DNA from: a virus
IMG/VR virus record: IMGVR_UViG_3300021971_000202
Length of the DNA: 11,431 bases
Reading direction: 5' to 3' (one strand)
Position 1 is the stretch's first letter, and each line of letters begins with the position of its first letter. The notes beneath the pieces were generated by a model. It did not search any database and was not told the origin of the DNA. It was given only the letters and a program-made list of their open reading frames with translations. Position numbers and translations under genes: made by a program. This document shows positions 1 through 11,431 of the stretch, one piece after another.

Positions 1-67
1 AATTATCCCCTCCCTATTAAAAAGTTAGGCATACCCAAAACTTAATTTTTAGGCACACCTAACTTTA
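1..67. repeat. Left inverted terminal repeat (ITR-L), putative protein-primed replication origin
   Basis: Bases 1-67 are the exact reverse complement of 11365-11431, checked base by base; the first mismatch is 68 vs 11364. The genome end reads 5'-AATTATCCCC. Internal substructure: AAAGTTAGG (21-29) pairs with CCTAACTTT (58-66), and TTAGGCAYACC is directly repeated at 25-35 and 49-59. Confidence 0.95.
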
Positions 68-115
68 ATATACGATATGGAGAAAAAACTTTATAAAAAT
101 ATTTTCAAAAAAGGG

Positions 116-144
116 TTGCAAAATAATTTTTATCATGGTATACT
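116..144 (+). promoter_or_regulatory. Sigma-A-type early promoter with extended -10
   Basis: -35 TTGCAA (116-121), 17-nt spacer, TGgTATACT (136-144; -10 TATACT at 139-144). An A/T-rich UP-like tract lies upstream (about 91-112). The predicted start near 151 lies just before the first SD (AGGAGG 161-166). Confidence 0.6.
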
Positions 145-175
145 TTAGATAATCAAATAAAGGAGGAAATAAAAA

Positions 176-424
176 ATGCACTCACACAAGATCTACATTG
201 TTGCTTCCACTGAAAATGTTAGAGATGTTCATATTCAGAATGTATATGACGGTGATGTTTTCACTCTTGATTCTATTGTAGCAGGTCTCAAAGATCAATT
301 AAAGGGACTTAGGCATTATATATCAAGTGACGGTAGCAAAGCGTATATTGATATAATTGATTCTCAAAATGAATTAGTTAAAACAATTTCTATTGTTAGT
401 AAGAATGTTATGTTAAAGTATTAA
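176..424 (+). CDS. Hypothetical early protein (82 aa), first gene after the promoter
   Basis: ATG at 176 lies 9 nt after AGGAGG (161-166). It has the same orientation and close spacing as neighbouring genes. I recognise no motif. Confidence 0.7.
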   Translation: MHSHKIYIVASTENVRDVHIQNVYDGDVFTLDSIVAGLKDQLKGLRHYISSDGSKAYIDIIDSQNELVKTISIVSKNVMLKY

Positions 425-452
425 TCAAAAAAAATAAAGGGGGATTATTATG
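415..452 (+). repeat. Intergenic junction cassette, copy 2 (AAAGTATTAATC-A(n)-TAAAGGRG...ATG)
   Basis: AAAGTATTAATCAAAAAAAATAAAGGGGGATTATTATG aligns with 740-776 with only 2-3 indels or substitutions. The core AATCAAA..TAAAGGAGG is also present at 151-166. Confidence 0.8.
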
Positions 453-749
453 AAAAAAGTACAATTAAAGAATAAGAACACAGAAGAAATTAAACGGGTA
501 AAAGTTGGATATTCATGGACAGTGCTTTTCTGGGGATTTATTCCTTCATTATTTAGAAAAGATTGGATAGGAGCATTAGTAATTTTCGTATTAAATATAG
601 TTGTTTCATATTTAATTGGAACATATGGATTATTAGTTTCAGATGGTATTATTGGTGCATTATACAACAAGAATTATATTAGTCGGTTATTAAAAGATGG
701 ATATGTACCACTTAGTGATCAAGATAAGACTGTAATGTCAAAGTATTAA
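450..749 (+). CDS. Small two-helix membrane protein (99 aa), DUF2628-like by pattern
   Basis: ATG at 450 follows SD AAAGGGGGA. Two hydrophobic stretches are present (WTVLFWGFIPSLF and IGALVIFVLNIVVSYLIGTYGLLV). The pattern SW..LFWGFIPSLFRKDW plus a C-terminal YNKNYISRLLKDGY resembles DUF2628-type proteins; this is from recollection, not searched. Confidence 0.7.
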   Translation: MKKVQLKNKNTEEIKRVKVGYSWTVLFWGFIPSLFRKDWIGALVIFVLNIVVSYLIGTYGLLVSDGIIGALYNKNYISRLLKDGYVPLSDQDKTVMSKY

Positions 750-776
750 TCAAAAAATAAAGGAGATTATATTATG
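740..776 (+). repeat. Intergenic junction cassette, copy 3
   Basis: AAAGTATTAATCAAAAAATAAAGGAGATTATATTATG is a near-identical direct repeat of 415-452. It includes the last two codons (K-Y) and the TAA stop of the upstream gene, plus the SD and ATG of the downstream gene. Confidence 0.8.
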
Positions 777-1262
777 AGTTTAAGTGTATATGAAAAGAAC
801 AACGTTGCAAGTGGTGTTGATTGTTTAGTTAAGGGTCATCTATCATTTAATGTTTTAAACCAACCACGCACACAGAAACCTAACGAATATGTTTCTGATC
901 CTAAACCAGAATATGTTGTTTCATTAGATGACCCCAAATTTTTAAAGGGTGATGATAACTTAATTAAAGCATTGAAAGAAACTCAATACGGTGAACAGAG
1001 TAATAAACTATCTATTCGGGATAAGTCACCGTTTGCACCAATGATCTTTGGGGTTGACAACGAGAAACAAAGCGGTAGTGATTTAATTCCAGAGGGTAAC
1101 AGTTTGAAAAACGGGCAACAAGTTTTAGTTCATGTTACTACGTACACAGGACACGGGAATGTTGGTTGTGGATTTGACGCTATCAAAGTTGCTGTTCCTT
1201 TGAGTGATGTTGAAATTACAGAAGCAGGTGGTGCAGTTTCCGCTGATGTATTTGATATTTAA
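774..1262 (+). CDS. Putative ssDNA-binding protein (T7 gp2.5-like / DUF2815-like), 162 aa
   Basis: SD AAAGGAGA lies upstream of the start. An N-terminal V.GHLSF.VLNQPR pattern, a central GNVGCGFDAIKV pattern and an acidic/aromatic C-terminal tail (SADVFDI) resemble gp2.5-family SSBs. Its position in the replication module, upstream of the TP candidate and polymerase, fits this role. No search was run. Confidence 0.5.
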   Translation: MSLSVYEKNNVASGVDCLVKGHLSFNVLNQPRTQKPNEYVSDPKPEYVVSLDDPKFLKGDDNLIKALKETQYGEQSNKLSIRDKSPFAPMIFGVDNEKQSGSDLIPEGNSLKNGQQVLVHVTTYTGHGNVGCGFDAIKVAVPLSDVEITEAGGAVSADVFDI

Positions 1263-1274
1263 GTAAGACAGGTG

Positions 1275-1299
1275 GGGCGGTGTTTACCGTCCTATTTTA
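1275..1299 (+). terminator. Rho-independent terminator or attenuator after the SSB-like gene
   Basis: Stem GGGCGGT (1275-1281), loop GTTT, stem ACCGTCC (1286-1292): 7 bp with one G-U pair, followed by TATTTTATT. The T-tract is interrupted, so it is probably leaky. Confidence 0.5.
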
Positions 1300-1314
1300 T
1301 TAGGGGGTGAAAAT

Positions 1315-1575
1315 ATGAACATTAAAGAACAACGGATCAGGCGTAAGATTAAATTACAACAGATTGGATCACTAGCAAAGCAAGCCCGGAAGCAGGATAG
1401 CATTGAAATTCGTGAGTTGAGTGCTAAAACCGGGTACACAACGCAATTAATTTACGCTTTTGAAAATGGTAATTCTAGTAATATGGTAATTTTGTTTGAT
1501 TGTTATTTCTGTAAACTAACAGAAACGACACAAAATAAATTATATCAACAAATAAGAGGTGTTTGTGATGAGTGA
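1315..1575 (+). CDS. XRE-family helix-turn-helix transcriptional regulator (86 aa)
   Basis: SD AGGGGGTGA (1302-1310). The segment IRELSAKTGYTTQLIYAFENGN fits the XRE/Cro-type HTH pattern (helix, G-turn, recognition helix, E.G). Confidence 0.6.
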   Translation: MNIKEQRIRRKIKLQQIGSLAKQARKQDSIEIRELSAKTGYTTQLIYAFENGNSSNMVILFDCYFCKLTETTQNKLYQQIRGVCDE

Positions 1576-2146
1576 TTATTCAGACTTTAACCAATTAGTT
1601 AGCAAGGCAAACAAGCGTTATCGTAGGTTATCCAAAAAAGGTTGGAAGACAGGAGCTTTGAAGAAAGCCGATAAAACAGGCGGGGCTTTTCATAACAGGC
1701 GTGGTATGAGTGCTAGGGAAAAAGCAAAGGAATATAAAAGAGTTAGCAACTTTTTAAATTCTAAAACGTCAACCGTTCGCGGTAGTCGTAAAGTTTTAAA
1801 GAATATGCTACACAGAACCGGGTTAAGTGATTTAGTTGATGATACACCCGATACCATTATGACAACCAATGTAGAACGTGAGAATGACGGTTCGGTCAAC
1901 GTTATTAATAAATTTTTTGATATTGCTTCAATGGTCAATGATTATTTAGAAAATAACCGAGGGGTCAAAGTGAGTTCTGATGAAATTTGGCGTTCAGTAC
2001 ACGACACCTATTTATCAGGTTATAGCAATGATTTTTCAGAAGCTGACGGGGACGCAATGGTTGCGAACGCTGTTAGAAAATTGCACGCAGATTATTTGAA
2101 AAGTCACGGTTCAAAAAGTTCCAATCAAACGTGGTCTACAATTTAG
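1568..2146 (+). CDS. Candidate terminal protein (TP) for protein-primed replication (192 aa)
   Basis: ATG at 1568 lies 6 nt after AAGAGGTG (1554-1561); the ORF track's GTG at 1559 sits inside that SD. The gene is immediately upstream of the protein-primed polymerase, as TP genes are in phi29-like phages. The N-terminal third is very basic (KANKRYRRLSKKGWKTGALKKADK...NRRGMSAREKAKEYKR) and the C-terminal part is more acidic and Ser/Tyr-containing. No sequence homology is recognisable to me. Confidence 0.5.
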   Translation: MSDYSDFNQLVSKANKRYRRLSKKGWKTGALKKADKTGGAFHNRRGMSAREKAKEYKRVSNFLNSKTSTVRGSRKVLKNMLHRTGLSDLVDDTPDTIMTTNVERENDGSVNVINKFFDIASMVNDYLENNRGVKVSSDEIWRSVHDTYLSGYSNDFSEADGDAMVANAVRKLHADYLKSHGSKSSNQTWSTI

Positions 2147-2158
2147 GGTGGTGAAAGC

Positions 2159-4276
2159 ATGATTAATGTAAATGAATTTGATTATGATATTGTTAAACGT
2201 GCATTTAATCATGCGAAAACCATTAAGACTAATAAAAAAGTAACTTATTATGAAATTGTGACTTCGTTTGATATTGAAACAACCAGCACCAAGCAAGACG
2301 ATCAAAAGTTTGCTTTTATGTATATTTGGCAATTCGCTTTTGAAGATGTGATTGTGTATGGTCGGACGTGGGAAGAGTATCAACATTTTACAAGTAAGTT
2401 AGTAGAAATTTTACACTTAAATACCAGTAAACGGTTAATAATATATGTTCATAATCTAGGTTATGAATTTCAGTTCATGCGAAAATATTTTGATTGGGCT
2501 AAGGACGGAATTTTTGCCGTTGATACTAGAGAGCCTGTAAAAGCCCTAACCAATAACGGGATCGAATACAAAGATAGTTATATTTTAGCTAGTTTAAACC
2601 TTGATCATGTTGCCAAGAATTTACAGCACCATAAAATTGAAAAATTAGTGGGAAATCTTGATTATACGCAAATTAGAACCTATAAAACGCATTTAACCAA
2701 TGATGAGTTAGCTTATTGCGCAAATGATGTTAAAATTGTGGTAGCTTATATTCACGAACAGATTGATGAATACGGAGATATTACTAAAATACCGTTAACT
2801 AATACTGGTCGAGTGAGACAGTACACTATGCAACAGGTTTATTTTAACGGTCAAAAACAACACCGTAATACGGGCGGACAGTACAAAAAATACCGTAAAT
2901 TAATGGATACGTTAACGCTATCACCAGAGGAATATCAGCAATTGAAACATGCTTTCCAAGGTGGATTCACGCATGCGAATGCCAACAAGCAAGGAAAAAT
3001 GATTGACAATGTGACGAGTTACGATTTTACAAGTTCATACCCGACTGTTATGGTGACCGAACAATTTCCAATGGGAAGAGGTTTCCACCCTAAAATTAAG
3101 TCCCGAAAAGACTTTGATTTTTACCGTGAACATTATTGTATGATTTTTGATATTAAGTTTACGAACCTATTTCCTAAAATTGAACAGGATCATTATTTAT
3201 CAAGTTCAAAATGTGAGTGTTCAAAGGATATGATCGAAGATAATGGGCGGATTTTTTCAGCGTCAACCGTGAAAACCACGATAACGAACATTGATTTTGA
3301 AATTATTGAACGGACGTACACGTGGGACAAGGCACAAGTAAGCAAAGTTCTCGCTTATCGTAAGGAGTTATTACCAAAGAATTTGATTAAAGCGATCATA
3401 CATTTGTACAAAAACAAGACTAAATTAAAAGGCGTTCCGGAACAACGTCCCGAATATATGCGGTCAAAAGGTATGCTAAACTCAATGTATGGAATGAGTG
3501 TCACTAACATTGTTCACGAGGAGAATAACTATATTAAAGATGAGTGGGAACAGGAAGAACCTAATTTAAGCAAAGAAATTATTAAGTATAACCAAAGTAA
3601 GAAACGTTTTCTATTTTACCCGTGGGGTGTTTTTGTTACTGCATATGCTAGACGGAATTTATGGACAGGAATAATCAGTGTAGGTGCTGATTATTGTTAT
3701 TCAGATACGGACAGTATCAAGATTGAGAACGGACAAAATCATTTAAGTTATATTAAAAAGTACAATGAGGTCACCAAAAGCAAGATTAAACAAGTTTGTG
3801 ATAAGTATAATTTAGATGTAAACGATTTTGCCCCGTTTACGATTAAGGGTAAACAAAAACCGATTGGTTACTGGGACAGCGAGGGTGTTTATGATAAATT
3901 TAAAACGTTAGGCGCTAAGCGATATTTAGTTTTTCAAAATAATAAATTGATGTTAACTTGCGCAGGTCTTTCAAAAAGTAAGGGTGTTGATTATTTACTA
4001 AAACAAAGTAATAACAATATTGAAAAAGCATTCAAATTATTTAATGATGAAATGTCGGTACCAGCAGAATATACGGGCAAGTTAACTCACACTTATATTG
4101 ATGATCCCGTAAAGGCGTTAGTAACTGATATTGACGGGAATAAAGTAGAGGTTAACCCCCTATCAAGTATTCATTTAGCACCAACGGAATTTAACCTATC
4201 AATTTCTAAAATGTATAATCAATTCTTATTGGCGTTGATTCATGGTGAACTTTTACTAAAGGACGTGCAAAAATGA
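2159..4276 (+). CDS. Family B DNA polymerase, protein-primed (phi29 gp2-like), 705 aa
   Basis: All hallmark motifs are read in the translation: Exo I SFDIETT, Exo II HNLGYEF, Exo III YCANDVKIV, motif A DFTSSYP (Dx2SLYP), motif B KGMLNSMYG (Kx3NSxYG), TAYARR (Tx2GR-like), motif C YSDTDSI, and KxY as GAKRYL. SD GGGTGGTGA lies upstream. Confidence 0.95.
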   Translation: MINVNEFDYDIVKRAFNHAKTIKTNKKVTYYEIVTSFDIETTSTKQDDQKFAFMYIWQFAFEDVIVYGRTWEEYQHFTSKLVEILHLNTSKRLIIYVHNLGYEFQFMRKYFDWAKDGIFAVDTREPVKALTNNGIEYKDSYILASLNLDHVAKNLQHHKIEKLVGNLDYTQIRTYKTHLTNDELAYCANDVKIVVAYIHEQIDEYGDITKIPLTNTGRVRQYTMQQVYFNGQKQHRNTGGQYKKYRKLMDTLTLSPEEYQQLKHAFQGGFTHANANKQGKMIDNVTSYDFTSSYPTVMVTEQFPMGRGFHPKIKSRKDFDFYREHYCMIFDIKFTNLFPKIEQDHYLSSSKCECSKDMIEDNGRIFSASTVKTTITNIDFEIIERTYTWDKAQVSKVLAYRKELLPKNLIKAIIHLYKNKTKLKGVPEQRPEYMRSKGMLNSMYGMSVTNIVHEENNYIKDEWEQEEPNLSKEIIKYNQSKKRFLFYPWGVFVTAYARRNLWTGIISVGADYCYSDTDSIKIENGQNHLSYIKKYNEVTKSKIKQVCDKYNLDVNDFAPFTIKGKQKPIGYWDSEGVYDKFKTLGAKRYLVFQNNKLMLTCAGLSKSKGVDYLLKQSNNNIEKAFKLFNDEMSVPAEYTGKLTHTYIDDPVKALVTDIDGNKVEVNPLSSIHLAPTEFNLSISKMYNQFLLALIHGELLLKDVQK

Positions 4277-5367
4277 CAAAGTACAAATTTTATAGTTTGA
4301 ATAATATTAAAAAGAAAAAAGCAACTTACAACGTAATTTTCGGAGAGCGGTCAAATGGTAAAACATACGCTGTATTAAAAGAAGCATTAAACTTATTTAA
4401 GAATGAGGGTAAGCAGTTCGCTTATGTAAGGCGGTGGCAAATTGATATTCAGGGTAGACGATCACAAGCTATATTTAGCGCCCTAGAAAGTAGTGGGGAA
4501 ATTGCCAAGATTTTCAATGATCAATATACTGGGGTATATTATTATGCCGGACGGTTCTATTTATGCACGTATGACGAACATGGAAAAGCGGTATATTCGG
4601 ACACTGATATTATAGGTTACACCTTTGCCCTATCTGATAACGAGCACAACAAGTCTAATTCATTTCCTAATGTGGGGTTAATCATGTTTGATGAATTTCT
4701 AACTAAGGGGTTATATTTACCAGATGAGTTTGTGTTATTTATGAACACCGTTTCAACGATCGTGCGTTTGCGAACTGATGTTAGAATTTATATGCTGGGT
4801 AATACTGTTAACAAGTTTTCCCCGTATTTTCAGGAAATGGGTTTAAAGCATATTAAAGAAATGAAACCCGGTTCAATTGATGTTTATAATTATGGTGATA
4901 GTAAGTTAAAAGTGGCAGTAGAGTATACAACTTCAACTAATAAACAAAAGAAAAATAATTTTTATTTTGCTTTTAATAACCCTAAATTAGCAATGATCAC
5001 GGGTGGGGCGTGGGAATTAAATATATATCCACACTTACCAGTAAAGTATAAACCGCATAACATTAAATTTATTTATTTTATTGAATTTAACGATCAAACT
5101 TTCCAATGTGAAGTTGTTGATAAAGAACCCTATTACTTTACTTTTATTCACTTGAAAACAACTCCGATTAAAGATGTAGACAACGATTTGATATATACTA
5201 CTGACTATATGCCTAAAATGAACTATAATAGAAATATAATGAAGCCGATCACGGAGTTACAAAAAAACATTAAATGGTTTTATGTGACTGATCGTGTTTA
5301 TTATCAAAATAATGATGTTGGCGATAGTATCAACAATTATCTAAAAATATGTAGACAGGGGTTGTAG
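4273..5367 (+). CDS. DNA encapsidation (packaging) ATPase, phi29 gp16-like, 364 aa
   Basis: Walker A GERSNGKT at aa 24-31, the same position as in phi29 gp16 by recollection. Walker B GLIMFDEF. The start overlaps the polymerase stop (ATGA at 4273-4276). Confidence 0.85.
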   Translation: MTKYKFYSLNNIKKKKATYNVIFGERSNGKTYAVLKEALNLFKNEGKQFAYVRRWQIDIQGRRSQAIFSALESSGEIAKIFNDQYTGVYYYAGRFYLCTYDEHGKAVYSDTDIIGYTFALSDNEHNKSNSFPNVGLIMFDEFLTKGLYLPDEFVLFMNTVSTIVRLRTDVRIYMLGNTVNKFSPYFQEMGLKHIKEMKPGSIDVYNYGDSKLKVAVEYTTSTNKQKKNNFYFAFNNPKLAMITGGAWELNIYPHLPVKYKPHNIKFIYFIEFNDQTFQCEVVDKEPYYFTFIHLKTTPIKDVDNDLIYTTDYMPKMNYNRNIMKPITELQKNIKWFYVTDRVYYQNNDVGDSINNYLKICRQGL

Positions 5368-5371
5368 TATA

Positions 5372-5614
5372 ATGGAAGAATTTTTAACGCACGGTTTAAC
5401 ACAGCTTATTTCAGCAGTGGGCTTTCCAATTGTAGTAGCGGTGGCGCTGTATTATCAAAACACAACGCTATCATCTAGTTATCAGAAGATGAACCAGCAG
5501 TTACAAGAAAAGATAGACAATAACACGTTGGTTTTAGCCCGTTTAGTTGAAAGGTTACACCAAGATGTTGTTCTAAACGATCCGACTGAAACCGAAAAGA
5601 GTGATGTTAAATGA
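5372..5614 (+). CDS. Small single-pass membrane protein, YvrJ-like (80 aa); holin candidate
   Basis: The N-terminal LISAVGFPIVVAVALYY matches the GFP-containing hydrophobic helix typical of YvrJ-family proteins (recollection). It is followed by a polar, helical, charged tail. The stop overlaps the portal start (ATGA at 5611-5614). Confidence 0.6.
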   Translation: MEEFLTHGLTQLISAVGFPIVVAVALYYQNTTLSSSYQKMNQQLQEKIDNNTLVLARLVERLHQDVVLNDPTETEKSDVK

Positions 5615-6561
5615 TTAGTTTAACCGATAAGCACGGACTGTTAAAACAGTTCAAGGACGACCAGCTAAACAAGACTTTAACCATGTTCGAATGGTCTAAT
5701 TTACCAGATACCTTACCAGCATTAGAATTAGAAAAAATGTTGCAGATAAATGGGTATGCGATAATTGCCAAGTACCAAGATAATGTTTATGCTTTTCAAG
5801 GTGGTTTTAGCGGTCAAGACGCTTATAATCAACCAACACAAGCGATCGTAAGTAATCCAGCGTTGAAACTTAATAACACATATACGATCAACCAAGATTG
5901 TGTAATTATTAAAAATGACGATATGAAACAAGGATTGATCAAGACTTATGAATACTACGGTCAACGGTTGATTGAAAATGAAATCACCATGCTTATGACC
6001 GACTATAATTTGCGTATGCCGTTTACAATTTCATCAAGTGACGATCAGACTACGCAATCAGCGCAAGACTACCTAAATAAAATTATTGACGGATCACTTG
6101 GGGTTATTGGTGAACAAAAGTTATTTAGTGCTTTAAATGTTACGCCAACCAGTGGCAAGCAAACGTCAAATTTTGCTGATTTATATGGTTACCAGCAATT
6201 TATCACAGCACAACTTAATAACACCATTGGATTGGCAACCAACAACAACATGAAACGGGAACGCTTGACGACTAATGAAATTGAGGTTAACAAAAATGCT
6301 AGTTATCCATTAGTTGATAATATGTTAAAAAATAGACAATTGGCTGCTGAAAAAATCAAGGCAATATTTGGTTTAGATGTTCAAGTTGAATATAGTTCAA
6401 TTTGGGGATCTGATGACGAACAACCAGAACCAGAACCCAAACCAGAACCTAAACCAGAACCTAAACCAGAACCTAAACCAAAACCTAAACCAGAACCTAA
6501 ACCAAAACCTAAACCAGAACCTAAACCAGAAGATAAGAAAAAGGGGCGTGCTAAAAAATGA
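5611..6561 (+). CDS. Portal / upper collar connector protein (phi29 gp10-like), 316 aa
   Basis: [28 protein letters not shown] parallels phi29 gp10 [41 protein letters not shown]...[17 protein letters not shown] parallels KKERMVTDEVSSN...ACEKINELYGLNVKVKF (recollected reference). The length is close to gp10 (309 aa). Confidence 0.9.
   Translation: [316 protein letters not shown]
6424..6531 (+). repeat. Tandem 6/12-nt repeat (AAACCAGAACCT)n encoding 18 consecutive Pro-Glu/Pro-Lys dipeptides
   Basis: CCAGAA/CCTAAA units run uninterrupted from 6424 to 6531. In the portal frame they give [36 protein letters not shown] (aa 272-307), followed by DKKKGRAKK. Confidence 0.95.
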
Positions 6562-7100
6562 TGTATTCCGATTATATTAAAGCCGGTGGCACGGGAATTA
6601 TTACCCTATTATCACAAAATCAAACCTTAAAATATTTATTAAGCGATTCAATTCAACCGTTAGATACCACTTTTTTAATGGAAAACGGTAATAAAAATTT
6701 TTCACTTGCAATCGAAAGCATGTTAAATTCTGAAAATGATTTAACACCAATTGCTAGTATGCTAAAAGTTCGCTTTGGTCAATATTGGCAAGTGCTTTAT
6801 AATTCACAACCAGCGGATAGTGATACCATTAATAGTTCAATTACAACCACCAATGGAGAAATCAACACCACAGGCAACACTGTGGGGCAAGTGAGTGGGT
6901 ATGATAGCCCGACAATGGTGGATAATGATGGTAGTAATTCAACGGGTAATCAAACGAATAACAACACGGTTAAAACATTGAAATATGAAGATCTAACAAA
7001 ATTATTAGGTGAATTGAAAAATAATGTTTTTTATGATAAAATGTTCATAGATATTAGAAATTACATTTTTAACACTGTTTACGGAAATGAAAGGGAGTAA
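6558..7100 (+). CDS. Hypothetical virion or assembly protein (180 aa); lower-collar/adaptor or scaffold candidate
   Basis: ATGA overlap with the portal stop. It lies between the portal and major capsid genes. A central Asn/Thr/Ser/Gly-rich low-complexity region (about aa 85-137) is flanked by ordered-looking ends. I recognise no motif. Confidence 0.65.
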   Translation: MMYSDYIKAGGTGIITLLSQNQTLKYLLSDSIQPLDTTFLMENGNKNFSLAIESMLNSENDLTPIASMLKVRFGQYWQVLYNSQPADSDTINSSITTTNGEINTTGNTVGQVSGYDSPTMVDNDGSNSTGNQTNNNTVKTLKYEDLTKLLGELKNNVFYDKMFIDIRNYIFNTVYGNERE

Positions 7101-7104
7101 TATT

Positions 7105-8271
7105 TTGAAAGTAACTCAATTAAAAGATATTCTAGGAACAGTTACAAATGAGGTTTTAGGTAAAGATGGTGTTTTAGCAGAAGATCTTTCAAACCTTGTT
7201 GATGTTGGTAATCAGATTGTTGATACCGAAAACATTGATAACTATGTAAAAAAGCTGATTGACCGAATTGGTAAAGTTGTCTTTGTGAACCGGTTGTATG
7301 CTGGGGGTGTTCCCAGCGTATTAATGGATAGCTGGGAATTTGGTTCAATTGTTGAAAAGATTAGCGCTGATATGCCCGACGCTGATACCAACGATAGTTG
7401 GAACTTACAAGACGGACAATCATATTCACAAGATACTTTTTACCAGCCTAAAGTTTCCGCTAAGTTTTTCAACTCACAAGTTACTTTTGATGTTAAGTTG
7501 TCGTTTACGTCAAAACAAGTTAAAGAAAGTTTTACCAGTGTAAATGACTTAAACGCATTCTTATCCATGCTTGAAACTGGTGTTGAAAACTCAATGACTG
7601 TTAAACTTGACGGATTGATTATGCGTACGATTAATAACATGACTGCACAAATTCTTAACGGTGGGCAAGCAATGCAAAAAGTCAACTTGCTATCACAATA
7701 CAATTCAATTAGTGGATCAACCTTAACTGCTAATAAAGCTTTACTTGATAAGGAATTTTTGAAATATGCTAGTTTGGTTATTAAGCAATATCAGGCACGG
7801 GTTACAACTATGTCAACTTTATTCAACCAAGGTGCAAAAGCACGGTTCACAAACACAACTGACTTGCATACAGTGTTACTTTCTGATTTTGCGGATAATG
7901 CGGAAGTTTACTTGATGAGTGACACCACCCACAACGATATGGTTTCACTACCACAGCATGAAACCGTACCATATTGGCAAGGTAGCGGAACAGCATACGG
8001 ATTTAATGATGTTTCAACGATTGACGCAAAGATTAACGGTTCTAATAAGACACCTAAGGAAATCAAACAAAGCGGTATTTTAGGGGTTATGTTTGATACA
8101 AATGCCCTTGGTGTTTCTAACCTTGACCAACGAACAACCACCGCTTACAATGCACGGGCTGAATTTTACACTAACTTTTATAAACTTGACGCTGGTTTCT
8201 TTAATGATTTAGATGAAAACTTTGTCGTATTTTACATTGCAGACGCTGTTACCCCAGCCCCAGCGGCTTAA
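7105..8271 (+). CDS. Major capsid protein (phi29 gp8-like), 388 aa from TTG 7105 (394 aa if ATG 7087)
   Basis: KKLIDRIGKVVFVNR parallels phi29 gp8 SLVDRIGLVVIRQ, and the N-terminus (M)KVTQLKDILG parallels MRITFNDVKTSLG (recollected). TTG 7105 lies 7 nt after AAAGGGAG (7090-7097) and just after the upstream TAA (7098-7100). ATG 7087 has no SD. A strong terminator follows the gene. Confidence 0.85.
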   Translation: MKVTQLKDILGTVTNEVLGKDGVLAEDLSNLVDVGNQIVDTENIDNYVKKLIDRIGKVVFVNRLYAGGVPSVLMDSWEFGSIVEKISADMPDADTNDSWNLQDGQSYSQDTFYQPKVSAKFFNSQVTFDVKLSFTSKQVKESFTSVNDLNAFLSMLETGVENSMTVKLDGLIMRTINNMTAQILNGGQAMQKVNLLSQYNSISGSTLTANKALLDKEFLKYASLVIKQYQARVTTMSTLFNQGAKARFTNTTDLHTVLLSDFADNAEVYLMSDTTHNDMVSLPQHETVPYWQGSGTAYGFNDVSTIDAKINGSNKTPKEIKQSGILGVMFDTNALGVSNLDQRTTTAYNARAEFYTNFYKLDAGFFNDLDENFVVFYIADAVTPAPAA

Positions 8272-8292
8272 TATATTTTTTGAAAGTGAAAG

Positions 8293-8316
8293 GACGGGTA
8301 TAAACCCGTCTTTTTT
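8293..8316 (+). terminator. Strong rho-independent terminator after the major capsid gene
   Basis: Perfect 7-bp GC-rich stem: GACGGGT (8293-8299), loop ATAA, ACCCGTC (8304-8310), followed by TTTTTT (8311-8316). An upstream A-run (8289-8291) could extend the pairing. Confidence 0.85.
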
Positions 8317-8332
8317 AATACGAGGTGTTAAA

Positions 8333-8758
8333 ATGAACGTAAACTTTTATGATAATCAATCAAATGAAAATGTAATCAACAAGACGATAAATTTAATTAC
8401 CAGTAAAAACATTATATTCAGAAGCACGATCAACGAAAAGAACCCAGTATTATTGCTTCATAATGATTTATTGAACGAAATTAATTATGTCGAAATCCAG
8501 ACCTTTAAAAGGTATTATTATATTGAACATATTGAACCATTCAACAATCAATTATCGAGGATTTTTCTCACCACTGATTTATTAATGACGTATCAAAATG
8601 AAATTCTAAATAATGAAGTATTAGTTACCGCAACGGAACAGCCCAGTTATTCAGCAAACAGTTTACCAACTACCCGTAAAATAATTAGTGACAAGTATGT
8701 GGGTAACGTTACGTTGCCTACCGGAACAACCAAAGTATTAACAACCATAGGGGGTTAA
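8333..8758 (+). CDS. Tail protein resembling the N-terminal domain of the phi29 gp9 tail knob (141 aa)
   Basis: ATG at 8333 lies 5 nt after GAGGTG (8322-8327), downstream of the terminator. The ORF-track start at 8213 would run through the capsid gene end and the terminator. NYVEIQTFKRYYYIEHIEPFNNQLSRIFLTTDLLMTY parallels gp9 [42 protein letters not shown] (recollected). Confidence 0.6.
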   Translation: MNVNFYDNQSNENVINKTINLITSKNIIFRSTINEKNPVLLLHNDLLNEINYVEIQTFKRYYYIEHIEPFNNQLSRIFLTTDLLMTYQNEILNNEVLVTATEQPSYSANSLPTTRKIISDKYVGNVTLPTGTTKVLTTIGG

Positions 8759-8761
8759 AAC

Positions 8762-10531
8762 ATGTCTACAACATTAAGTAGTAAAATTATAGGTGTTCAA
8801 TTATATGCGTATGATATAGCAAGACGACCCGACAAAACACTAGATTCCAAGGGATACCCACAATTACTAAGTTATACAAAAGATAATGAACAAGATGATG
8901 CGGTTTCACCTGTAACACAAAACCCTACGGAAAACCTTACACAGGCAATAAACCAAATTATGTTTGTTTCTAATGTTGTCAAGAGTTTTAATGATCAGAA
9001 AATAAACGTTCACGGAATTAAATTTGGTCCCGGTGATAATGTAGATATAGCACTATCAATGATTAATAATAGTAGTAACGTAATATATTCTAATGTGATC
9101 TTATATGGTGATGATGTCTATATACAACCCGAACCAAATACAACCGCTACAACAACCAATAAAAAAACACCTTTTTCAACTAGTACGCCCGGAATTAACA
9201 TAAAATATCAAACGGGTATTGTACCAAACAACCGGGGTCATGCCAATGTTATTTTTGAAGTAACAACGGGTTACAAAATTCCAGTTGGTGCTACCATTAA
9301 AGCAAACCCCACTATTCAAGATTCGTTTGGTAAATTAAAACCCGGTACGCCAAAAACCTATCAGGTAGTGTATGAAATTCAACCCGGAGTCTATTCCTTT
9401 ACTATAAAATCAGACAGTAGTACCGAATGGAAAGAATGCGATATTGATTTTTCTACCGTACCAACAACGACAACACCGCCAGAAACACCACCAACAACAA
9501 TTCCGCTGGTTCAAAAGTTAGATCATGTTAAGAGTAATATAACCGGTGATTCAATTGATAGAAAACTTAATGCAATTAGTTTAACCGCTGATCCCGGTTA
9601 TATGTTTAAAACCAACATTGAAATTTTGTTATATTCAGGGGGTAAAATAGTTTATGACAATGCTGTTGCCGGTAATAATTCGGATAGTATCACGATCCCT
9701 TTGAATACCACCAATGAAAACACAATTACCGATAACATTGACAATATACAACTAACAGCTAGTGCTACCCTTGGAACAGTATCAACTAGTTACGAACATA
9801 ATTATTTAATCACAGATACAGAATTAAACGCCCTATCTAATGAAAAAATATGGACGTTTGTTAATGGTGAACCCGGTTTAGATAGTTACAATACTAATTA
9901 TTTTATTAATAACTTAATTCAATTACCATTTAATGTTGATACTGAAAATCATATGCAACCTATATCATTAGGGGAGGTGAAAGCTCAAACTGCCGCATAT
10001 GAAGCAAAAGAAAGGTTTGTAAACCTTGATTTAGGTAATATCAAAGTACCAGCAAAATATCATAATGGTTATGATTATCAAAATAAGACGATTAAGCTTT
10101 ATACGCCTTTTGTTCCACCAATTTCCATTGATAATACCAATGCAATTGATAAAACGATCCGAATTAGTTACAAAGTTGATATTTCAAACGGTAACTTAAC
10201 CGTCAACCTATATAATGATGATATTTTATTCTTTACAGGTATCAACAGAATTGATAGTCAAATACCTTTCCTAAACATGTTAAAAAATACGATCATTAAC
10301 CGTGATACACATTTCACCGATAACGATATTAGACAACCATATATCATTGTTTCACGTGAAACACCGATCCTAAATAGTGATTATTACCCGACTAGTGAAC
10401 GTGGTTTAATAAAGAGTTATAATGGTAATGTTCAAGTACGTTTATTAAATAATATGAACATACCGAACAATGAATTATCTGAACTAACAAGTCAACTAGA
10501 AAGTGGTGTTAAATTTGTTAAAAGTAATTGA
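8762..10531 (+). CDS. Tail knob / receptor-binding tail protein (589 aa), gp9-like C-terminal part with an inserted linker-flanked module
   Basis: SD AGGGGGT (8749-8755) lies 6 nt before ATG 8762. Thr/Pro linkers (PNTTATTTNKKTPFSTSTPG and STVPTTTTPPETPPTTIP) flank a beta-rich module. The C-terminal third (IKLYTPFVPPISID...ISYKVDISNGNLTV, and the end NIPNNELSELTSQLESGVKFV) parallels gp9 (MMYPYCVTEITD..., DINNNDLQEIRTIFDNGITLW), from recollection. Confidence 0.6.
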   Translation: MSTTLSSKIIGVQLYAYDIARRPDKTLDSKGYPQLLSYTKDNEQDDAVSPVTQNPTENLTQAINQIMFVSNVVKSFNDQKINVHGIKFGPGDNVDIALSMINNSSNVIYSNVILYGDDVYIQPEPNTTATTTNKKTPFSTSTPGINIKYQTGIVPNNRGHANVIFEVTTGYKIPVGATIKANPTIQDSFGKLKPGTPKTYQVVYEIQPGVYSFTIKSDSSTEWKECDIDFSTVPTTTTPPETPPTTIPLVQKLDHVKSNITGDSIDRKLNAISLTADPGYMFKTNIEILLYSGGKIVYDNAVAGNNSDSITIPLNTTNENTITDNIDNIQLTASATLGTVSTSYEHNYLITDTELNALSNEKIWTFVNGEPGLDSYNTNYFINNLIQLPFNVDTENHMQPISLGEVKAQTAAYEAKERFVNLDLGNIKVPAKYHNGYDYQNKTIKLYTPFVPPISIDNTNAIDKTIRISYKVDISNGNLTVNLYNDDILFFTGINRIDSQIPFLNMLKNTIINRDTHFTDNDIRQPYIIVSRETPILNSDYYPTSERGLIKSYNGNVQVRLLNNMNIPNNELSELTSQLESGVKFVKSN

Positions 10532-11327
10532 TGTTTCAAGTAACCAAGGATTTATCAAGATTGCCCCGATTGATTGTGACGCAGTTATCACGAAAGCAAC
10601 AGGCGGAAATAGTTATGTAAACCATTGTTGTGATTATGTTATTCAACAATGTATCAAACTCAATAAACCATTTGGTTTCTACCACTATGCACACGAATAT
10701 GGAAAATTTAATTTACCAGAAAAAGAAGCAGATTTCTTTATCAAGAATACAAAGAACTACTTTAAACGTGGATTGGTTGTCCTTGATTATGAAGTCCCTA
10801 TCAATGGACGCAACTATACTAAAACTGATATTAATTGGATTGAACAATTTATTGAGTATGTTCACCAGAAAACAGGTGTGTATTGCCTACTATATATTAG
10901 TAAGTCATTGTTATACGGTACTGGTGATTGGTCTAGGGTTGCCAAGATTTCCGGGTTATGGTTTGCCCAGTATGCTGATAATAACCGCACAGGCTGGACT
11001 AAAACACCGTGGTCTGATCATAAGCCTACCTCACCATTTAACGTTGTAATGGATCAGTACACAAGTACCGGACGGATTCACGGTTATAATGGTAATTTAG
11101 ACTTATCCATATTCTATGGTGATAAAAATACATGGAATGCGTATGCCAATCCAAGCAAACAAATTATTCATAAACCTACCGAAAAAACTAAGGAAGTGAA
11201 ACATATGGATTATTTAACTGAATTTGCAAAAGATGTTATCAAAGGAAAATACGGTAATGGTCAACATAGAAAAGAAAATATTTATAATGCAGTTCAAAAG
11301 AAAGTTGAACAATTACTAAAAAAATAA
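10503..11327 (+). CDS. Endolysin: GH25 muramidase domain plus a single C-terminal CW_7-like (Cpl-7 type) motif
   Basis: GH25 signatures: VIDVSSNQG, AVITKATGG, the LDYE (D-x-E) catalytic pair, and MDQYTSTGRIHGYNGNLDLSIFYG. The C-terminal FAKDVIKGKYGNGQHRKENIYNAVQKKVEQLL resembles the CW_7 repeat (recollected). No in-frame ATG precedes the catalytic motif. The frame opens after TAG 10497-10499, so the start must be GTG 10503, GTG 10506 or TTG 10515. Confidence 0.9.
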   Translation: MVLNLLKVIDVSSNQGFIKIAPIDCDAVITKATGGNSYVNHCCDYVIQQCIKLNKPFGFYHYAHEYGKFNLPEKEADFFIKNTKNYFKRGLVVLDYEVPINGRNYTKTDINWIEQFIEYVHQKTGVYCLLYISKSLLYGTGDWSRVAKISGLWFAQYADNNRTGWTKTPWSDHKPTSPFNVVMDQYTSTGRIHGYNGNLDLSIFYGDKNTWNAYANPSKQIIHKPTEKTKEVKHMDYLTEFAKDVIKGKYGNGQHRKENIYNAVQKKVEQLLKK

Positions 11328-11364
11328 ATTTGTCAAGTAAAAAATAATTTGTCCCACCGAAAAA

Positions 11365-11431
11365 TAAAGTTAGGTGTGCCTAAAAATTAAGTTTTGGGTA
11401 TGCCTAACTTTTTAATAGGGAGGGGATAATT
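11365..11431. repeat. Right inverted terminal repeat (ITR-R)
   Basis: Exact reverse complement of 1-67. On the + strand its internal palindrome (AAAGTTAGG 11366-11374 with CCTAACTTT 11403-11411, then TT) could also act as a transcript-end hairpin for the rightward operon. Confidence 0.95.

Follow-up and report, generated by a model that had tools for sequence, protein, structure and literature searches.

The IMG/VR virus record IMGVR_UViG_3300021971_000202, a stretch of 11,431 bp that was analyzed at its full length (the window; 33.9% guanine plus cytosine, GC), raises the question of whether it is the whole genome of a tailed phage and, if so, what kind of phage it is, which host it infects, and whether it can infect alone. 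A first-pass annotation had described a complete genome bounded by inverted terminal repeats (ITRs), with every gene on one strand and a self-sufficient gene set of a protein-primed mini-podovirus, and had suggested that these minimal tailed phages form a lineage that is undescribed or only very thinly sampled. Our analysis indicates that the window is the complete linear double-stranded DNA genome of an uncultured and presumably virulent phi29-like podophage. It belongs to an undescribed, genus-level subclade of the Astrithrvirus-like clade and probably has a Gram-positive host. We put the probability of this reading at about 0.85.

The first 67 nt of the window are the exact reverse complement of the last 67 nt (left ITR, 1-67; right ITR, 11365-11431), and the inverted match reaches 71 of 74 positions (96%) over the arms 1-74 and 11358-11431. 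Near-copies of the window with 99.4-100% nucleotide identity were assembled independently in JGI 3300021966, JGI 3300023205, and ENA ERZ17990359. These contigs start at base 1 (L091), base 10 (L092), or base 13 (L093) of the window and finish at base 11431 (L005) or base 11419 (L004). Among the near-identical contigs from these three other samples, none reads beyond either end. Since assemblies made independently from three samples end no more than 13 nt from the same bases, the window ends are physical and the genome is complete and linear. Moreover, the terminus of the window (AATTATCCCCTCCC) resembles those of Acinetobacter phage Phanie (GGGTTATCCGCCCCCC) and Pectobacterium phage DU_PP_III (GGGATATCCGCCCCCC), and window-like terminal sequence was also found in three complete IMG/VR genomes. 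The three named termini have a common form, …TATCC followed by a C-rich run. The left ITR is presumed to be an origin of protein-primed replication.

The plus strand carries 14 open reading frames (ORFs) that cover about 97% of the sequence, and no minus-strand ORF in the window is free of overlap with them. Non-coding space is limited to positions 1-175, 1263-1314, and 11328-11431. The completeness, the one-strand layout, and the position of this genome at the small end of the tailed phages, all of which the first-pass annotation had claimed, are thus borne out.

Whole-window megablast against GenBank phages gave no match. By protein comparison the nearest phages were Salmonella phages astrithr, Astrid, and assan, the DU_PP_III phage of Pectobacterium, the Phanie phage of Acinetobacter, Enterobacter phage Entb_47, Shigella phage vB_SHGBLB0004, and Vibrio phage K58 g2. 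Several of these are classified in or beside the genus Astrithrvirus of the International Committee on Taxonomy of Viruses. The Astrithrvirus-like isolates have genomes of 10.4-11.9 kb and come from at least six host genera. The window shares their core gene order and is 42-51% identical to them in the family-B DNA polymerase (PolB), 57-64% in the packaging ATPase, and 52-61% in the capsid protein. The review by Evseev et al. (2024; PMC11476376) treats Astrithrvirus-like phages as 'cluster 23', whose members it describes as phi29-like phages that infect Gram-negative hosts, have 11-14-kb genomes, a short lower collar, and a knob encoded by two genes, and lack fibers.

In neighbor-joining trees, the window grouped with three metagenomic relatives (L011, L012, and L013) at 100% bootstrap inside the clade, and the clade itself was separated at 100% bootstrap from the outgroups, Amedibacillus AD70P2 and a fecal contig. 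In the PolB neighbor-joining tree, the window shared a 95%-supported group with those Gram-negative isolates for which inclusion was possible. In a VIRIDIC-like calculation, the similarity of the window was 13-15% to every isolate (13.4% to astrithr) and 43-50% to the nearest metagenomic relatives. As a control, the same calculation gave 28-41% among astrithr, Phanie, and DU_PP_III, for which PMC11476376 gives 30-40%. Membership of the genus Astrithrvirus was taken as at least 70% genome-wide nucleotide similarity to a member. Since the similarity of the window to the isolates is only 13-15%, it lies outside the genus Astrithrvirus, but inside the Astrithrvirus-like clade.

The genes for replication and packaging agree with this placement. 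Gene g06 (2159-4276, plus strand, as are all genes described here) encodes a protein-primed PolB of 705 aa (PF03175, 58 bits against a cutoff of 25.8; phrog_1907, 257 bits), and its translation shows Exo I-III and motifs A, B, and C. Gene g07 (4273-5367, 364 aa) encodes a gp16-type DNA-packaging ATPase (PF05894, 72 bits; phrog_2150) with the Walker A sequence GERSNGKT and the Walker B sequence LIMFDEF. Directly upstream of the polymerase gene lies g05 (1568-2146, 192 aa), a candidate for the terminal protein. Its start is probably at 1568, at an ATG after GAGGTG. The protein has an invariant TSTVRG motif and is 26-40% identical to the product of the syntenic gene in astrithr, Phanie, DU_PP_III, Entb_47, and others. 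Because the homolog stands directly upstream of PolB in the relatives that have it, and because PMC11476376 names the equivalent gene of the clade as the counterpart of phi29 p3, we infer a terminal-protein role for g05. The g05 family profile gave nothing significant against PDB sequences, and PHROGs returned scattered weak matches only. For a prohead RNA (pRNA), which has been described only in phi29 and close Bacillus phages, no Rfam match at E ≤ 1 was found in the window except a chance small RNA match, and a tRNA scan of the window found none.

Gene g03 (774-1262) encodes a 162-aa protein with an acidic C-terminal tail, which the first-pass annotation had called similar to a single-stranded DNA-binding protein (SSB). 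Its structure model was confident (predicted local distance difference test, pLDDT, 89; predicted template modeling score, pTM, 0.82). In Foldseek it matched 5odj, 5odk, 5odl, and 4klk with probability 1.0 and 1je5 with probability 0.99; these structures are of Enc34 SSB, two DUF2815 phage proteins, and T7 gp2.5. At the sequence level, no match was found in Pfam, in a family-profile comparison with PDB sequences, or by tblastn against phages. Because the confident model matches the Enc34, DUF2815, and T7 gp2.5 folds, the predicted structure identifies g03 as an SSB of the T7 gp2.5 type, not of the phi29 p5 type. The SSB call was therefore right, and its type can now be given. Homologs of g03 (57% identity) sit straight after the terminal protein and PolB genes in 22-kb phi29-like phages. 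Three such contigs from ENA (L101-L103, about 22 kb) encode, after terminal protein and PolB, a g03-type SSB, a GH25 lysin, a phi29-type capsid protein, and a collagen-like protein; their nearest cultured capsid relatives are Enterococcus EF62phi-type elements, at only 25% identity.

The virion genes follow. Gene g09 (5611-6561, 316 aa) encodes the connector (upper collar or portal; PF05352, 67 bits; phrog_2038), and g11 (7087-8271, 394 aa) encodes a phi29-type major capsid protein (PF25622, 178 bits). The connector ends in a (PEPK)n stretch and then a basic tail, encoded at 6428-6531 by a tandem repeat of period 12 (8.7 copies, 94% matches). The number of repeats varies from sample to sample of this phage, and the connector has 312, 316, or 332 aa accordingly.

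The tail knob was also found, as the first-pass annotation had proposed, but it is split into two proteins. The small subunit, g12 (8333-8758, 141 aa), is better started at 8333, since all homologs align from there. Its family profile matches the major tail protein of phage C1 (4eo2 residues 46-156, E = 1.3e-5) and 8egs_Y. It is 26-32% identical to Phanie gp9 and astrithr gp09, and it corresponds to the N-terminal part of one-piece knob proteins. The large subunit, g13 (8762-10531, 589 aa), begins with an N-terminal beta-sandwich module (residues 3-233), followed by another beta domain (about 245-335) and by the C-terminal knob part, which is conserved (about 345-589). In its structure model (pLDDT 76.5), the N-terminal module (1-235) was very confident and was the most confident part. 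In BFVD the model matched the large knob protein (568 aa) of Salmonella phage Astrid (E = 2.5e-18) and, over a local stretch, a protein labeled 'Major tail protein' from a podovirus. The C-terminus is 23-30% identical to the large knob proteins of the isolates, while the N-terminal two thirds are unrelated to them. Against PDB, Foldseek with full-length g13 returned only generic tandem immunoglobulin (Ig)/FN3-like arrays, and the C-terminal knob part had no match to a solved knob. The g13 family gave nothing significant against PDB sequences and a probability below 1% against phi29 gp9 in hhalign, and tblastn of the N-terminal part against phages found nothing.

Between the connector and capsid genes, g10 (6558-7100, 180 aa) is putatively a shortened lower collar (tail tube), an assignment made by position and elimination. 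It is syntenic with astrithr gp07, with a weak similarity (22% identity, E = 8e-4), and shortened lower collars in this clade are reported in PMC11476376. No match was found between g10 and phi29 gp7 (scaffold), PDB sequences, PHROGs, or NCBIfam. Two hhalign results weigh against these phi29-like assignments: the g10 family has no detectable similarity to phi29 gp11, and the g05 family has no significant similarity to phi29 gp3 (probability below 1% in both cases).

Two genes probably serve lysis. Gene g08 (5372-5614, 80 aa) encodes a holin-like protein with one transmembrane segment (phrog_4898 holin, E = 5.9e-9), and syntenic homologs occur in Phanie and others. Gene g14 (10503-11327, 274 aa) encodes an endolysin with a GH25 muramidase domain (PF01183, 88.6 bits) and one CW_7 repeat (PF08230, 39.2 bits; phrog_291), and its true start may be a few codons downstream. 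The PolB, ATPase, portal, capsid, and peptidoglycan hydrolase of the first-pass annotation are all confirmed by these matches.

Whether such a gene set makes the phage self-sufficient is less clear. Scans of the window with the Pfam, PHROG, and NCBIfam libraries found no fiber, appendage, spike, or scaffold gene. Phanie particles are described in PMC11476376 as non-infectious unless they are bound to the contractile tail of a helper myophage, Aci01-1. Because no fiber gene was found, and because Phanie is reported to need a helper myophage tail, the description of the window as self-sufficient is unproven.

The N-terminal module of g13 bears on this question. Residues 3-233 (window 8762-9460) align at 50% identity (E = 5e-65) with the N-terminal part of P0112, a protein encoded at 1210-2289 of contig L105. 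The C-terminus of P0112 is a gp6-like head-tail connector domain (PF05135), and its gene follows an HK97-type protease-capsid gene. The capsid protein of L105 is closest (51%) to those of two 14-kb elements of Lacticaseibacillus rhamnosus, R23.1 and JB1P3 (PMC10219966). These elements encode an integrase, a primase, terminases, a portal, a capsid, and a head-tail joining protein, and they have no tail or lysis genes. From this gene content they may be capsid-forming, tail-stealing satellites, which is our interpretation and not the label used in PMC10219966. We considered whether P0112 is a chimeric assembly and rejected this, since an independent contig, L108, shares both flanks (91-95%) with an in-frame replacement of the module. 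L108 (12.6 kb, with the same 33.9% GC as the window) matches L105 at 95% identity across the capsid gene and into the first adaptor codons; next comes another N-terminal module (6699-7409), and the connector domain that follows again matches L105, at 91%. Megablast of L108 against phages gave no match. Because L108 keeps both L105 flanks around a different module, the comparison of the two contigs points to an in-frame swap, not a mis-assembly, and to an adaptor N-terminal module that is swappable.

The window phage might therefore not be self-sufficient but Phanie-like, that is, non-infectious until its knob docks on the tail of an unrelated helper through the g13 modules. We hold this only as a tentative possibility. 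Its g12 and g13 are homologous to Phanie gp9 and gp10, the apparent lack of fibers, appendages, and spikes is as reported for the clade, and the g13 N-terminal module resembles one that is fused to the head-tail adaptor of a satellite-like element, where the adaptor would make the contact with a stolen tail. Mixed lysates or cocktails were the source of several isolates (Vibrio 'K58 g2' and 'Aci01-2', and a cocktail of nine phages), and PMC11476376 suggests that other members of the clade may use the strategy of Phanie. However, dependence on a helper has been shown only in one member, with a Gram-negative host, no candidate helper was found, and the window phage encodes its own replication, packaging, capsid, knob, and lysis proteins. 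Lateral Ig-like modules are common carbohydrate-binding decorations, and those of g13 could bind the host directly. The shared module is compatible with either an adhesion decoration or a tail-docking role.

A more specific proposal is rather unlikely, namely that the window represents a Gram-positive (Lactobacillales-type) branch of mini-podophages that cannot infect alone and hitch-hike on the tail of another phage. If it were true, the g13 N-terminal module would serve docking onto a stolen tail or a shared adsorption function, and two unrelated kinds of small capsid-forming elements would exchange a module for the use of helper tails. The shared knob module offers a testable handle on tail hitch-hiking as a general strategy, which has been shown for one Acinetobacter phage so far.

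Several genes suggest with good probability that the host is Gram-positive, probably Lactobacillales-like, because the relatives of the GH25 domain, of g02 and g03, and of the N-terminal module of g13 point to phages or elements from Gram-positive bacteria. When 60 of the 141 GH25 matches were sampled evenly, every named host was Gram-positive, none was Gram-negative, and about eight uncultured records named no host. The closest phage records were Enterococcus faecium podophages (43%). The closest lysins in species-representative genomes were on an 11,425-bp sister-phage contig binned with a Bifidobacteriaceae metagenome-assembled genome (73%) and in Enterococcus hailinensis (40%). The g02 protein has its best matches in phages of Lactobacillus and Leuconostoc, and g03 is found again in the 22-kb phi29-like phages with a GH25 lysin.

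Some points weigh against a Gram-positive host. The CW_7 repeat is no proof of one, as it occurs in the Acinetobacter phage Phanie; the g02 protein also matches E. coli jumbo phages; and it is weak evidence that a phage contig of 36% GC was binned with Bifidobacteriaceae. In addition, PMC11476376 ties a virion module of short collar, split knob, and no fiber to Gram-negative hosts. CW_7 was accordingly dropped as a sign of a Gram-positive host, given the CHAP and CW_7 domains of the Phanie lysin, and GC content was rejected as a clue, since all clade members have low GC whatever their host.

The alternative is a Gram-negative host with the GH25 and CW_7 lysin as a horizontally acquired module. 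All cultured members of the clade infect Gram-negative hosts and the virion module of the window matches theirs, while neither the CW_7 repeat nor the low GC distinguishes between hosts. We nevertheless consider it unlikely, since no Gram-negative host was named among the sampled GH25 matches, the accessory genes g02 and g03, like the N-terminal module of g13, each lead to phages or elements of Bacilli, and the combination of GH25 and CW_7 is kept across the subclade (the window, L004/L005, L094, and L097; the L011 contig ends inside the GH25 gene). A Gram-negative host as a trait of the clade probably reflects which members were cultured and is unlikely to define the clade.

CW_7 repeats are usually tied to Gram-positive lysins, and their presence across the clade may be a trace of Gram-positive ancestry. 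In the Phanie genome (L002), the lysin at 10350-10964 has a CW_7 match of 34.5 bits against a cutoff of 25. The repeat was also seen attached to CHAP, glucosaminidase, or GH25 domains in L015, L017, L020, L024, L035, L043, L046, L029, L055, L048, and L060.

The 'Gram-negative' phi29-like branch thus probably holds an abundant subclade whose lysis and accessory genes are of Gram-positive type. In that case, a short collar and a split knob may not depend on the type of cell envelope, and the direction of the proposed host switch could be tested. The subclade is common in public sequencing runs and has no cultured member, and its likely host group is a target for isolation.

How novel the lineage is can be judged from its sampling. 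In a tblastn search of 50,697 phage records with the capsid protein, 24 records matched, each of them an Astrithrvirus-like phage, an Amedibacillus phage, or a fecal contig, and no capsid similarity to Mycoplasma phage P1 was detectable in this search. In IMG/VR, 298 contigs had a related capsid. ITRs, lengths, and strands were surveyed in 80 of these 298 relatives and in the isolates. Terminal inverted repeats of 18-424 nt were found in 47 surveyed genomes, which were 9.4-13.8 kb long (median 11.6 kb). Four of the 46 ITR-complete genomes had a one-strand layout; as a distinguishing feature, this layout is thus uncommon in the clade but not unique to the window. One surveyed contig, L063 (IMGVR_UViG_3300010327_000287), has 9,427 bp, a 102-nt ITR, 24% GC, and the core genes of the clade, and if complete it is smaller than any cultured member.

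The subclade of the window is itself well represented. At 90% identity, its proteins formed 103 clusters for g03, 333 for g10, and 78 for g13, often on 11.1-11.9-kb contigs, and some clusters contained over 1,000 sequences. NCBI assemblies include related contigs of 11,365 bp and 11,425 bp. The idea that this lineage of minimal tailed phages is undescribed or very sparsely sampled, which the lack of a near-identical GenBank phage record and the 13-15% similarity to all isolates could favor, is therefore very unlikely: the window nests in a named and reviewed clade with hundreds of IMG/VR relatives and subclade clusters, and related 11.4-kb contigs are already in NCBI assemblies. The subclade is well sampled yet undescribed, distinct at genus level from every isolate, and uncultured. 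The genome is ordinary for its clade, one of hundreds of ITR-bounded phi29-like genomes of about 11 kb in public data.

Two points weigh against the exact ends given above. The protein index lists an 11,534-bp contig with identical proteins, which is 103 bp longer than the window. In addition, the window opens with AA and several relatives open with GGG, and one or two terminal bases could be missing. An artefact of assembly, or an incomplete or circular molecule with a mis-assembled 'ITR', is hardly credible as an account of the window despite this longer contig and the adapter-like sequence at the 'ITR' ends of some clade contigs in IMG/VR, since three independent assemblies halt at nearly the same bases, the terminal motif is common to sequenced isolates, the gene set is complete and collinear with theirs, and no adapter sequence is visible at the window ends.

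Other observations concern the ends of this and related genomes. The 103-bp surplus of the longer contig may reflect repeat copy number or extra end sequence. The adapter-like starts are those of three IMG/VR contigs (L052, L076, and L082), which open with about 30 nt resembling an Illumina adapter (…GTGACTGGAGTTCAGAC…, …GTCTCGTGGGCTCGGAGATG); therefore, the long 'ITRs' there may be partly artefactual. Clade genomes from sample 3300045988 (L047, L066, L069, L089, and others) open with AAAGGTAC…, which recalls the phi29 terminus AAAGTA. The ITR of the window holds an imperfect dyad at 21-43/44-66 (AAAGTTAGGCATACCCAAAACTT / AATTTTTAGGCACACCTAACTTT; 78% complementary), mirrored in the right ITR. 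It could be a binding site, and no clear conservation was seen among the relatives compared.

If the assignments above hold, the life cycle might proceed as follows. Replication would start at both ITR ends, with the g05 candidate as primer and the g06 polymerase extending from it; the terminal AA would permit sliding-back initiation, and the gp2.5-type SSB g03 would coat the displaced strand. Transcription would proceed rightward from a promoter near position 116, and a similar site immediately ahead of the capsid gene might boost it. The g07 ATPase would package unit-length DNA through the g09 connector into the g11 capsid. The tail would consist of the putative short lower collar g10 and the two-protein knob g12/g13, with the lateral beta-sandwich modules of g13 as the only candidate binding modules found. 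The holin-like g08 and the GH25 and CW_7 lysin g14 would then lyse the cell.

The remaining genes lie at the left end. Genes g01-g04 have a counterpart in no isolate; g01, g03, and g04 are common to the window and L011, and L097 has genes of matching size at these three positions. Gene g01 (176-424, 82 aa, function unknown) is conserved only in the subclade of the window (69% identity in L011). Gene g02 (450-749, 99 aa) encodes a membrane protein (phrog_4915). It is bracketed by a 33-nt direct repeat at 400-432 and 725-757 (91% identical; about 55 nt at 84%), which places a copy of the g01 3' end at the 3' end of g02 and delimits a 325-bp unit. In the sister genomes L011 and L097, g02 is absent and g01 runs directly into g03. 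Thus, g02 looks like an inserted cassette. Gene g04 (1315-1575, 86 aa) is a possible regulator with a weak helix-turn-helix. Its profile matches were below threshold (HTH_19, 18.5 bits against a cutoff of 30.2; TIGR03070, 19.8 bits against 71.65), an NCBIfam scan of nine small window proteins gave this weak helix-turn-helix match only, and tblastn of g04 against phages found nothing.

Two promoter-like sites stand out by position. One, TTGCAA-17-TATACT with an upstream TG (116-144, plus strand), lies in the only sizeable non-coding stretch ahead of g01 and may be an early promoter. The other, TTGAAA-17-TAAAAT with a TG (7014-7042, plus strand), lies within the last part of g10, with the capsid gene 45 nt downstream, and may be an internal promoter. 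The two agree at 22 of 29 nt, including the spacer AATAATnTTTT, and a weaker copy is at 4948-4976. Since the total number of promoter-like sites is no higher than expected by chance (64 found, 53 ± 8 expected), both are putative.

Among known systems, phi29 (Salasmaviridae) has an intergenomic similarity of 1.1% to the window. Both have a protein-primed PolB, a gp16-type ATPase, a gp10-type connector, a phi29-type capsid, a knob-type tail, and a linear genome with ITRs. In contrast to the window, phi29 has a 19.3-kb genome with a 6-nt ITR, divergent early and late operons, a pRNA, a scaffold, head fibers, appendages, gp13, and a one-piece knob. The next-nearest group after the Astrithrvirus-like clade consists of Amedibacillus AD70P2 and AD70P3 and gut contigs of 12-14 kb (MT836125 and others), with identities of 34-35% in PolB and 28-35% in the capsid. 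These are also small phi29-like genomes, from Gram-positive or gut settings, but they fall outside the clade (100% bootstrap) and have another gene order. With Lacticaseibacillus rhamnosus R23.1 and JB1P3, together with L105 and L108, the window shares one module only. Those elements have an HK97-type capsid, terminases, an integrase, and a primase, and lack tail and lysis genes, and the link is at the level of a module, not a family relationship.

Among the isolates, Phanie has the closest capsid (61%), the same core order, a split knob, and a lysin ending in CW_7, and its terminus (GGGTTATCCGCCCC...) resembles that of the window (AATTATCCCCTCCC). It differs in a large knob protein of 854 aa with other N-terminal domains, a 171-nt ITR, two minus-strand genes, and a CHAP catalytic domain. 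Moreover, the dependence of Phanie on a helper myophage tail is experimental (PMC11476376), whereas that of the window phage is hypothetical.

At the far end of the genome, the Astrithrvirus-like isolates as a group have two to four small genes in opposite orientation. The window has instead four early genes, unrelated to these, which lie at its left end and on the strand of all its other genes. The SSB of the window is of gp2.5 type, while a p5-like SSB is reported for the clade in PMC11476376. The isolates have lysins with a CHAP or M15 catalytic domain in place of GH25 with CW_7, large knob proteins that are unrelated over the N-terminal two thirds, and Gram-negative hosts, while the host of the window is probably Gram-positive. 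Nevertheless, both have linear genomes of low GC without a fiber gene, with ITRs where the ends were recovered, and they share the same core: a terminal protein candidate, PolB, the ATPase, a small membrane protein, the connector, a protein of about 180 aa, a phi29-type capsid, the small and large knob subunits, and a lysin.

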